A stretch of 19,092 nt of DNA from Promethearchaeota archaeon. Its GTDB lineage: Archaea; Asgardarchaeota; Lokiarchaeia; Sigyniarchaeales; SOKP01. Within the stretch, counting starts at the first letter, position 1, and every line of letters begins with the position of its first letter. The position numbers and the translations under genes are program-made. Positions 8,659 to 13,610 of this stretch are shown piece after piece. The stretch is taken from the NCBI GenBank assembly GCA_048941265.1, contig JBHLNT010000036.1:11253-30344 (forward strand), given 5' to 3'. A model generated the notes under the pieces. That model was not told where the DNA came from. It worked only from the letters and a program-made list of their open reading frames with translations, and did no database searches.

Positions 8659-8904
8659 TTGAAAGGTTGGGTTAAACTAAGTCTATTCTACATAGGGAAA
8701 TCTAAAAAGCATCAAATATTTAGAGTAAAACGATGGAATAGAAACTTTGAAAAAATTTACCGTAAACCTGTTTTTAATATGAATTATGAGGAAATAGGGT
8801 ATATTAAAGAAATATTTGGACCAATAAGCTTACCATTTATTTCCATTAAAACTCTACTGAATAAAGAATTTAGCCCATATAATGAACTTTATGTGAAAGT
8901 CTGA
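8659..8904 (+). CDS. gar1: H/ACA RNP protein Gar1 (archaeal type, no Gly-Arg repeats)
   Basis: VFN...IGYIKEIFGPISLPFISIK matches the Gar1/Naf1 core motif; lies directly upstream of tfb, a common archaeal arrangement. TTG start. Confidence 0.8.
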   Translation: MKGWVKLSLFYIGKSKKHQIFRVKRWNRNFEKIYRKPVFNMNYEEIGYIKEIFGPISLPFISIKTLLNKEFSPYNELYVKV

Positions 8905-8954: not shown

Positions 8955-9926
8955 ATTTCAAGTTGGAATAATGTAAATATAACCCTAGAAGAACTTAATA
9001 AGGAATCTTTTAACACTGATGATAACTGTATTGAATGCGGAAATTCAATTTCTTTTGATGAAAATAGAGGTTTATTTGTTTGTGAAAACTGTGGATTAAT
9101 TGCCTCAGAACGCCATATTGATCAAGGTCCTGAATGGCGTGCCTTTGATGCAGACCAAAAAAAGAAGCGAACTAGAACCGGAGCACCAATGACTTACATG
9201 ATACATGATAAAGGACTTTCGACGATGATTGACTGGAAAAATCGCGATATTTTTGGAAAGGAAATTCCTGCAAAATTAAGAGCTCAGATCTACAGACTAA
9301 GGAAATGGCAAAGTCGTATAAGGGTATCAGATGCAACTGAAAGGAATTTGACATTTGCTTTATCTGAACTGGATCGAATGGCTTCCAACTTAGATATACA
9401 GAAAAATCTACGCGAATGTTCAGCAAAAATATATCGAGATGCTGTAGAAGCACATCTTATTCGTGGACGAAGTATTGAAGGAGTTGCAGCAGCTAGCCTA
9501 TACGCTGCGTGTAGAATGTATAAAGTTCCACGAACTTTAAATGAAATAGCAGAAGTCGCCCGGGTTGATAAAAAGGAAATTGGGCGCTCATTTCGATTTA
9601 TTTCCAAAGAATTGAGATTAAATTTAAATCCTACTAAACCAGTTGATTTTCTCACTCGATTTATTAGTGAATTAAATTTATCTCAAAAATGCCAACAAAT
9701 TTCAAAGAAAATCATAAAAATGGCCGAACAGAGGGGTTTAACCTCTGGAAGGGGGCCTACTGGTGTTTGTGCTGCATCAATATATGCAGCTTCAATCTTA
9801 TGTAATGAGCGTAGAACACAGAGAAAAATAGCCAAAATCTCGCAAGTTACTGAAGTCACGATTAGAAATAGATTTAGTGAGTTAATCGAGAATCTGAATC
9901 TGGGAATCTCACTAAAGAAAAAATAG
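8955..9926 (+). CDS. tfb: Transcription initiation factor IIB (TFB), full length about 323 aa, probable ATT start
   Basis: The frame is open upstream of the track's ATG (9189) back to TAA at 8949. It encodes the Zn ribbon CIECG...VCENCG and B-reader [10 protein letters not shown]...RTGAP, followed by two cyclin repeats and the HTH RTQRKIA...VTEVTIRNR. The exact start is uncertain (ATT 8952 or 8955). Confidence 0.93.
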
Positions 9927-12648: not shown

Positions 12649-13119
12649 TTGAACTATTCTCAAGATGAGGCTATTTTAAAGAAAATACTCACAAATATCA
12701 TAAATAGTACGGCGGGATTAAAACACGCAATTATTATTGATGATACTGGTCTAACCATCTTAAGTCAATCTAAATTTAGTTTTTCTGCAGATCAAGACAT
12801 TTCTGTTGAAAAAATTGGAGCTATAGGGGGAGCTGTGTTTACTGCCGGAGAAGAGCAAGGATTAATTTTAGGATATGGAAATATTAAAACTCAAATTACG
12901 GAATATGATAAAGGTTTAATATTTTCTGTGAAAACTGGCAATGGTGTACTATGTTTAGCAACTGATCTAAACGTCCAAATCGGTTTTGTGCGTGCTCTCA
13001 TAAAGAAATGGGCTCCAAAAATCGCAACCGTTTTAGAAAGATATTTAAAAAGCAGCGATCAAGAAGCAATTAGCGATGAGCTAAAAGAACTATTTAGCCC
13101 AGATACAATTGGCTACTAA
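12649..13119 (+). CDS. Roadblock/LC7 (MglB/LAMTOR-like) domain protein
   Basis: GLKHAIIIDDTGLTILS, EKIGAIGGAVFTAGE, ITEYDKGLIF, NVQIGFVR; TTG start. Confidence 0.8.
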   Translation: MNYSQDEAILKKILTNIINSTAGLKHAIIIDDTGLTILSQSKFSFSADQDISVEKIGAIGGAVFTAGEEQGLILGYGNIKTQITEYDKGLIFSVKTGNGVLCLATDLNVQIGFVRALIKKWAPKIATVLERYLKSSDQEAISDELKELFSPDTIGY

Positions 13120-13154
13120 AATTATTAATAATAAAGATTAATAAAATTCAGCAT

Positions 13155-13464
13155 TATTGTTGCCTAAAGCACTAACTCTTTCTTCTCATTTTAAGGAAGT
13201 TCCGTTAAGATCGAATAAGTTCTCTCGTGTTAGGCGTTAATTTCATGCCTTTTTGGGAACATAATCATATCTGCGCCCTGGGTACTGGCTTCCACTTCAT
13301 CGCTATGATATTTATCATCACTTAGTTAAGAGCCCATTTTATGCGCAGTTTTTTACTTGCTGATTATTAAACTCTGGATGTTTGCGCTGCTTTGCACACA
13401 TACTCATCTTCGATCATATATGCCCTCGAAGCGCAGTTATTCCATCATCATTTTCCCAATAATG
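13155..13464 (-). ncRNA. Putative three-hairpin box H/ACA pseudouridylation guide RNA
   Basis: Hairpin 1 13435-13383 then aACA; hairpin 2 13348-13271 then AUAUGA; hairpin 3 13235-13162 then aACA. Each has a perfect 6-bp basal stem, an internal pocket and apical GA/GA K-turn or K-loop candidates. G-U pairs work only on the minus strand. Ends are approximate. Confidence 0.75.
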
Positions 13465-13496
13465 AGTATAGAAAAAGAATGTAAAAAATTTTGTGA

Positions 13497-13512
13497 TTTT
13501 ATAATTTTTGTT
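13497..13512 (-). promoter_or_regulatory. Candidate BRE/TATA promoter for the ncRNA
   Basis: Minus strand aacaaaaa-TTATAAAA would put a start site near 13470, just 5' of the structured region. The AT-rich background weakens this. Confidence 0.4.
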
Positions 13513-13610
13513 TGTTATTATGAATTAATTTTAAATAAATAACTATCCTTTTTTTATTTTAATGTAAATCCAATATAATGTAAAGTAATTTAAAAAAAGG
13601 TGATATATTC

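Follow-up and report, generated by a model that had tools for sequence, protein, structure and literature searches.

Which uridine, if any, is guided towards pseudouridine by the hairpin encoded on the minus strand at positions 13379..13435 of the DNA shown above? The hairpin lies in a 19,092-nt stretch of a Promethearchaeota archaeon genome (assembly GCA_048941265.1, contig JBHLNT010000036.1, positions 11,253 to 30,344), which we call the window, and all coordinates are window positions. The original prediction, made from the letters alone, described the hairpin as a box H/ACA pseudouridylation pocket directed to the peptidyl-transferase centre (PTC) of 23S ribosomal RNA (rRNA). The hairpin was present exactly there, as the first of three hairpins in a small RNA (sRNA) of ~315 nt, and there is very little doubt that this hairpin 1 is a genuine, well-formed archaeal box H/ACA unit. 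Judged from sequence and structure, it probably directs pseudouridine (Psi) formation to the U that lines up with E. coli C2496, which by numbering corresponds to Psi2588 in P. abyssi, Psi2592 in T. kodakarensis and Psi2865 in yeast. We give this reading a probability of roughly 0.68, and a slightly higher one when the neighbouring U is also allowed as the modified base.

The anatomy of hairpin 1 and its ACA box was established by sequence reading, folding, covariation and a covariance model, and every element lies on the minus strand. The lower stem is formed by UGCGCU (13435-13430) and AGCGCA (13388-13383), and it opens into a pocket with the 5' strand UCGAGG (13429-13424) and the 3' strand GCAAAGC (13395-13389), the same two strands that had been read before. 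Above the pocket, GCAUAUA (13423-13417) and UAUGUGU (13402-13396) form a 7-bp upper stem, capped by a K-loop that consists of UGA, an 8-nt loop and GAG (13416-13403). In the complete upper stem and K-loop (13396..13423), a U.G pair is followed by G.A and A.G around the 8-nt loop, and the K-loop motif suggests that these two pairs are sheared. The lower stem is followed by one A and then by the ACA box (13381-13379), which lies 14 nt downstream of the closing pair of the upper stem. The stack that runs from the pocket as far as the second G.A has 10 layers, namely 7 pairs, U.G (U.U in most relatives), G.A and A.G. This geometry, with 10 layers and ACA at 14 nt, agrees with two determinants published for archaeal H/ACA motifs that are productive: a 10-layer 'GA stem', seen in all crystal structures (PMC4652768), and an ANA box 14 or 15 nt from the closing pair (PMC2377435).

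Evidence that the hairpin is maintained as an RNA structure came from an alignment of 23 homologues, in which 12 pairs were counted, 5 in the lower stem and 7 in the upper stem. In these stems 96.7% of the cells were paired, compensatory changes were found in 7 of the 12 pairs with 31 cells changed on both sides, and the observed covariation score was attained by 0 of 500 shuffles. Compensatory changes affected 4 of the 5 counted pairs in the lower stem, one of which was A-U in 10 homologues, G-C in 9, G-U in 3 and U-A in 1, and they took the form of C-G/U-A, A-U/G-C and A-U/U-A in the upper stem. The K-loop elements UGA and (A/G)UGA(U/G) were kept among the homologues, and their consensus fold agreed with a structure of stem, pocket, stem and loop. 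When the partners were slid by 1-3 columns, only 10-56% of the cells remained paired. The minimum-free-energy fold of the single sequence beat shuffled sequences only modestly (z = -2.4). An alternative register of the upper stem taken from that fold, in which the GC of the 3' pocket strand pairs with the GC of the upper stem, was rejected because sliding the partners lowers the pairing; this register corresponds to a slide of +2 columns and paired 55.8% of the cells compared to 96.7%. The H/ACA pocket claimed from the letters alone was thus borne out by the fold, the ACA box, the K-loop and the covariation.

Homologues of the sRNA were found mainly within the family. With the 201-nt region as the query in BLAST against 40 related genomes, and with E < 1e-8 as the limit for a clear homologue, matches were found in 8 of 9 genomes of the same genus and in 14 of 15 other genomes of the same family; a clear homologue was found in none of the 16 genomes from other families. 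A covariance model of hairpin 1, R1, was run on 151 genomes of the order (the own genome counted) and gave one match each in 122 of them. By family, these were 119 of 131 genomes in the same family (f1), 2 of 14 in f2, where the matches were weak, 0 of 1 in f3 and 0 of 4 in f4. The three-hairpin sRNA is a family-level feature, apart from one weakly matching outlier, whose contig bears the title Sifarchaeum. R1 had no match in 12 of the 131 same-family genomes, among them G016, which has both rRNAs and a listed completeness of 100%; the missing matches may reflect sensitivity, with stricter filters in a large search, rather than loss.

The target was examined in relatives because the host assembly (361 contigs, 91% complete) gave no 23S or 16S. 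Matches to large-subunit rRNA were found in 16 of 41 related genomes, and 12 of these 23S loci were read. The stretch GGCUUGCUUCCUCGAUGUCGG was present and identical in 11 of them, and at the target all 11 read GGCUUGC-UU-CCUCGAUGUCGG. No copy of the stretch was found in the twelfth locus, where the 2255-base match runs to the end of the stored locus. One genome of the same genus, G006, carries both the sRNA (L027) and a 23S with the target stretch (L017). Against this stretch the pocket forms 4+6 bp around an unpaired UU, GCAA with UUGC and UCGAGG with CCUCGA, and all 10 pairs are Watson-Crick.

This pairing is shorter than had been expected from the letters alone, which had called for a 15-nt target GCUUUGC-U-N-CCUCGA and a 7+6 pairing. 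That target was in none of the 11 loci, and the host assembly held no exact or one-mismatch copy of it and 14 two-mismatch matches, compared to 10 for a reversed-pattern control. The rRNA sequence assumed for the prediction was slightly wrong, in that N is U and the relatives have one U fewer upstream; all 11 loci carry CCUCGA. The AGC of the 3' pocket strand, the source of the 7-bp expectation, was not conserved, and a 6+6 pairing would need one bulged guide A and was not conserved in relatives either. What held was the presence of a U at the modification position, in 11 of the 11 loci, and the match to the PTC. Each U was scanned in the rRNAs of a same-genus relative (23S and partial 16S) and of a same-family relative (23S and 16S), and no site other than the PTC one gave 8 or more contiguous bp with 3 or more on either side. 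The PTC stretch was thus the only good match in the relatives' 16S and 23S.

The conservation of the pocket was followed in 91 distinct hairpin-1 sequences from model-aligned matches, 80 of which were parsed automatically. The ACA box was 14 nt away in 77 of these 80 homologues and 15 nt away in 3. On the 5' pocket strand, CGAG was present in 80 of 80, the last G in 79 and the first U in 71. On the 3' strand, GCA was present in 80 of 80 and the fourth A in 71, the fifth letter was A in 61 and G in 17, where G would pair with a C in the 23S, and letters 6 to 9 varied freely. Counted as pairs of the 3' strand plus pairs of the 5' strand (maximum 6), 54 homologues fell in the class 4+6, 9 in 3+6, 7 in 5+6, 6 in 4+5, 2 in 5+5 and 1 in 6+5, and one was a parse artefact of 5+0. 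Among the 11 sequences that were not parsed, 9 had another ANA box (8 AAA and 1 AUA), and all 11 contained CGAGG and GCA. The weakly matching locus titled Sifarchaeum carries CGAGG and GCAAG. Because the pairing letters are kept and the others drift, the pocket letters under selection are those that pair with the invariant 23S stretch.

To place the target U, the Asgard stretch was aligned to the E. coli K-12 rrlH gene (2904 nt). CCUCGA occupies 2498-2503, the target U falls on 2496, and the alignment is gap-free between 2457 and 2505, with the Asgard UU on E. coli C2496 and A2497; the E. coli number given in the original prediction was therefore correct. For yeast 25S rRNA, Psi2865 is assigned to snR46 (PMC5699541, PMC8307265) and is marked as conserved in human and as lying within the PTC (PMC8307265). 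Yeast 2826 is equated with E. coli 2457 (PMC11077068), which is an offset of 369, and 2865 - 369 = 2496, so the target U matches yeast Psi2865 by the offset. Um2921 and m5C2870 of yeast are marked as shared with E. coli (PMC8307265). The proposed link to yeast Psi2865 and snR46 fits the published tables and this offset by numbering. We take yeast Um2921 and m5C2870 to be E. coli 2552 and 2501, and both then fit the offset of 369.

In archaea the site has been known for longer. P. abyssi 23S Psi2588 was predicted for motif 1 of Pab40 (Pf7 in P. furiosus), was CMCT-positive and was formed in vitro with high yield, and a high degree of conservation in the large rRNAs of eukaryotes was noted in 2008 for positions 2549, 2588 and 2603 (PMC2377435). 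In T. kodakarensis, deletion of cbf5, nop10 or gar1 abolishes Psi2592, the counterpart of Psi2588 (PMC6138745). The spacings of 39 and 15 nt are identical in P. abyssi (2549/2588/2603), E. coli (2457/2496/2511) and yeast (2826/2865/2880), and yeast has a Psi at all three of its positions. P. abyssi 2588 converts to E. coli 2496 by arithmetic, with an offset of 92 (numbers from PMC2377435 and PMC11077068), and the identical spacings lead us to regard P. abyssi 2588 as the same site as the target U. The modification had been proposed as one shared by Asgard archaea and eukaryotes, and a link special to these two groups is not supported. Because the same site is guide-dependent in Thermococcales and has been described since 2008, the link is archaea-wide and eukaryotic.

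Genes for the protein partners are present in the host genome. Scores above the respective cut-offs were obtained for Cbf5 (434 bits), Nop10 (52 bits) and L7Ae (81.5 bits). The only Gar1-like match in the assembly was an open reading frame (ORF) of 81 codons on the plus strand of the window (8659-8904), which scored 24 bits, below the cut-off of 29.3. In the reading that we favour, L7Ae would bind the K-loop of hairpin 1, and Cbf5, together with Nop10 and Gar1, would bind the lower stem and the ACA box. The pocket strands would pair with the 23S on either side of the unpaired UU, through GCAA-UUGC (2492-2495) and UCGAGG-CCUCGA (2498-2503), and the 5' U of UU would be placed in the active site of Cbf5 and converted to pseudouridine. 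Assembly of the ribonucleoprotein, its use of this site as a substrate and the formation of Psi are what we infer from the anatomy of the RNA and its complementarity to the 23S of relatives.

There was a weak hint that the sRNA is expressed. Three metatranscriptome runs from three studies contain RNA-library contigs of 213-225 nt whose coverage is confined to 13205-13445 and leaves the flanks bare, and one of these contigs is identical to the window over 213 nt, whereas a DNA run covers all 1001 bases around the sRNA. The positions near 13223-13231 and 13436-13443 where contigs stop do not mark ends of the RNA, the contigs give neither strand nor level, and the parts of the 1-kb stretch that the RNA libraries leave uncovered prove nothing alone.

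A number of observations weigh against the assignment of hairpin 1 to the PTC. The host's own 23S is absent from its assembly, and the pairing was shown with the rRNA of relatives. The lower stem has 6 bp and is separated from ACA by a spacer of 1-2 nt, which is one pair below the reported range; canonical motifs have a lower stem of 7-9 bp directly before the ANA box, and compensations have been described (PMC4652768). In hairpin 1 the total of 14 nt is preserved through a longer single-stranded 3' pocket strand, and because such compensations are described in that paper, the short lower stem was not treated as defining. The duplex on the 3' pocket strand, where contiguous pairing comes from the first four letters GCAA only, has 4 contiguous bp, and this falls to 3 bp in 9 of the 80 homologues. 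ViennaRNA gave it -1.8 to -4.0 kcal/mol, compared to -8.0 kcal/mol for the duplex on the 5' strand. In P. abyssi the 3'-guide duplex was the more important one, and a 4-bp version with two G.U pairs was inactive (PMC2377435). The validated pair of Pab40 motif 1 at 2588 was itself borderline on that side, with -6.2 against a cut-off of -6.0 kcal/mol in another program (PMC4652768), and S. islandicus guides function with 8-11 bp and with mismatches (PMC11077068). With G-U pairs allowed, shuffled pockets reached 10 bp somewhere in the rRNAs in 191 of 3000 trials (~6%), so that the match of a single sequence is suggestive and not decisive; with Watson-Crick pairs only, they did so in 14 of 5000 trials. 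Yeast H/ACA guides need about 8 bp altogether. That the target U corresponds to P. abyssi 2588 and to yeast 2865 is a matter of published numbers and equal spacings. The RNA-library contigs cannot prove transcription, and the conserved stretch may come from related organisms.

Some of these points would also be expected if hairpin 1 were a genuine H/ACA unit with another substrate, such as a transfer RNA (tRNA), another small RNA, a pre-rRNA spacer or an mRNA, or with none, so that the match to the PTC is fortuitous. The short duplex on the more important side and the frequency of equally long matches among shuffled pockets fit such an explanation, as does the fact that archaeal H/ACA RNAs also guide sites in tRNA and CRISPR RNA (PMC11077068), and the search for targets covered relatives' 16S and 23S together with the own genome, the latter by a crude pattern only. 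However, the conserved pocket letters are those complementary to the invariant 23S while the non-complementary letters drift, the match is unique in the rRNAs and rare when only Watson-Crick pairs are counted, and in Thermococcales modification of this site depends on a guide (PMC2377435, PMC6138745). In the own genome the core pattern TTGCTNCCTCG had 2 matches compared to ~10 expected by chance, neither of them in or near a predicted tRNA, although this check carries little weight with only 10 tRNAs parsed. Taken together, we consider a different substrate or none rather unlikely. A closely related question is whether the pocket selects the right place but isomerises the neighbouring U (the E. 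coli 2497 equivalent), or both U of UU. Both unpaired bases are U in all 11 loci, P. abyssi offers documented cases of an unpaired UNN and of one motif that serves adjacent sites (PMC2377435), and the closing pair of the upper stem is a weak G.U, or is unpaired in 3 of 23 homologues, and would shift the register if it opened. In contrast, the canonical rule modifies the 5' base of the unpaired dinucleotide, the canonical geometry, with 14 nt to ACA and a 10-layer GA stem, is found without any shift, and the known Psi of P. abyssi, T. kodakarensis and yeast matches 2496 by numbering, which together make this alternative improbable.

It would be more surprising still if the stretch were another kind of structured element or a small coding gene, for example the plus-strand frame of 61 codons at 13357-13542. 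No Rfam family matched above the gathering thresholds, and with the limit relaxed to E 10 the sole match was an insignificant one to a C/D-box family; the 5' end of the sRNA also carries a C-box-like AUGAUGA, and the plus-strand frame does overlap the hairpin. Yet the substitutions fit paired RNA stems and not codons, all the hallmarks of H/ACA units occur together and are conserved in more than 100 genomes, and the plus-strand frame starts with TTG and enters an A/T-rich spacer whose sequence fails to align from one relative to another. We regard an identity other than H/ACA as very improbable.

The sRNA as a whole occupies approximately 13143..13457 on the minus strand, with ends that are estimated, and 23 homologues align over its full length. 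Its conservation extends from GGGAAAAUGAUGAUGG at the 5' end to a U run at the 3' end, and an A/T-rich TATA-like box lies ~25-30 nt upstream of the 5' GGGAAAAUGAUGAUGG. Each of the three hairpins is followed by an ANA box and contains a K-loop or a K-turn-like motif; archaeal H/ACA sRNAs normally have one to three motifs (PMC2377435). Hairpin 2 (13268..13348, minus strand) combines a CUGCGC/GCGCAG lower stem with an internal loop that resembles a K-turn and with an AUA box, and it was delineated by the consensus fold and by compensatory changes in its lower stem. The box is AUA in this genome and three relatives, and ACA in most. Hairpin 3 (13158..13235, minus strand), delineated by alignment and consensus fold, has the lower stem GCCUAA/UUAGGC, the conserved ACACGAGAGAAC and GUUAGUG, and an ACA box.

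When hairpins 2 and 3 were scanned for targets with several boundary offsets, the result was scattered matches of 10-12 bp that were inconsistent between the two relatives. The one exception was a weak lead in the 23S for hairpin 3, UAGC-UG-GUUCUC, whose spacing to the ACA box, as we read it, departs from the rule of 14-15 nt. For hairpin 2, a pairing of ACCCAG in its conserved 3' strand with 23S CUGGGU (~E. coli 2579-2584, next to U2585/U2586) was tried and rejected, as the box distance of ~16 nt and the K-turn distance are off the rule; because both distances break the rules, we claim no target for hairpin 2.

The core of hairpin 3 also occurs in loci where hairpin 1 was not found. The pattern GCCU..C..GAGAGA.C ... 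GUUAGUG occurred in at least 112 stretches of the genome collection, and 80 of these were read as loci. Their titles were mostly Promethearchaeota or Promethearchaeia, with some Hermod-, Hod-, Odin- or Sifarchaeum, 6 Bathyarchaeota and a few bacterial ones. In 65 of the 80 loci listed, R1 located hairpin 1 upstream of this core, at a distance of ~215 nt, and it did so in 0 of the 6 Bathyarchaeota loci among the matches listed. In these six Bathyarchaeota contigs (L110, L146, L159, L171, L175 and L187) the core, the lower stem and the ACA were seen as a single hairpin. This distribution suggests that hairpin 3 is a guide for a widely shared target.

Short outer helices can be drawn around each hairpin and its ANA box: GGA/UCC for hairpin 1, UAAUC/GAUUA for hairpin 2 and GCAU/AUGC for hairpin 3. 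By sequence reading they involve 13441-13457, 13361-13376, 13261-13266, 13151-13154 and 13246-13249 on the minus strand. In addition, a GGG at the 5' end of the sRNA could pair with a CCC after hairpin 2, and the C-box-like AUGAUGA is located at that same end. In the alignment, 95.3% of the cells in the outer helices were paired with little variation, 4 cells were changed on both sides, and 35 of 500 shuffles reached the covariation score. Because these helices hardly vary, covariation neither supports nor rejects them.

Around the sRNA, the Gar1-like ORF is located just upstream of a TFIIB gene (9189-9926, plus strand) and ~4.5 kb from the sRNA. The ORF adjoining the sRNA (12649-13119, plus strand) has a weak match to MAPKK1_Int, an MP1/Roadblock-like fold, with 20 bits compared to a cut-off of 25. 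MP1/Roadblock-like proteins are often listed among the 'eukaryotic signature' proteins of Asgard archaea. In the relatives' rRNA, the same-genus 23S genes L017 (G006) and L015 (G003) have an insertion of ~35-40 nt that E. coli and the same-family G016 lack. It is situated around the E. coli 2530 equivalent, a short way downstream of the target, and the alignment of the two genes breaks off after ~E. coli 2598. The insertion may be an expansion segment or an intron.

What this sRNA adds is a concrete, testable H/ACA guide RNA, at the level of prediction, for the Asgard lineage; a literature search that covered few subscription journals found no description of Asgard H/ACA guides. With the Psi predicted here, the range of one PTC pseudouridine, known in Thermococcales and in eukaryotes, would come to include the archaea most closely related to eukaryotes, which fits the suggestion from 2008 of an early origin for conserved large-subunit Psi sites. 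The R1 model and the alignments could be used to annotate the sRNA in Promethearchaeota genomes. The finding brings no new mechanism, the site is not tied to Asgard archaea in particular, and the kind of RNA was already known.

A larger claim, part of which the original prediction raised as a possible ancestral snoRNA-target pair, would be that the sRNA is the Asgard orthologue of the Afu4/Pf7/Pab40 family and that hairpin 1 shares descent with snR46, so that the PTC guide-target pair was inherited vertically from an archaeal ancestor into eukaryotes and not re-invented, with the outer helices and AUGAUGA as a lineage-specific way to hold a multi-unit H/ACA RNA together. We consider this unlikely. 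Pocket letters can converge, because the target dictates the letters of the guide.

Among known systems, Pab40 motif 1/Pf7 is one of the nearest. Like hairpin 1, this is an archaeal H/ACA hairpin: it contains a K-loop or K-turn, its GA stem has 10 layers, its ANA box is 14-15 nt away, and it is the first motif of a three-motif sRNA. By numbering it acts on the 23S position predicted for hairpin 1, with a short, weak duplex on the 5' side of the target. The two differ in lineage (Thermococcales compared to Asgard) and in the lower stem (8-9 bp compared to 6 bp); Pab40 is experimentally validated whereas hairpin 1 is known from sequence, and hairpins 2 and 3 are not assigned to the targets of Pab40 motifs 2 and 3. 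The S. islandicus guide sR435 and the 'classic' crenarchaeal guides share with hairpin 1 the arrangement of hairpin, pocket and hairpin and a role, predicted for hairpin 1, as guides for Psi in domain V of the rRNA (in their case, for example, at 23S U2597, equal to yeast 2826 and E. coli 2457), and the 'classic' guides tolerate short, imperfect duplexes of 8-11 bp (PMC11077068). Their target positions are different, and the 2496 equivalent is not among the modified S. islandicus sites in the table of PMC11077068. Yeast snR46, which has a human counterpart, resembles hairpin 1 in that a synthase of the Cbf5 family is guided by a bipartite pocket, and by offset and published numbering it serves the PTC position predicted for hairpin 1. 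Eukaryotic H/ACA snoRNAs, however, have two hairpins with H (ANANNA) and ACA boxes, no K-turn, and Nhp2 in place of L7Ae, whereas the sRNA described here is built of three hairpins, and every one of them carries an ANA box and a motif of the K-loop or K-turn-like kind. It is an sRNA of archaeal type that stands outside the snR46 family, and it is predicted to work like snR46 at the same site.

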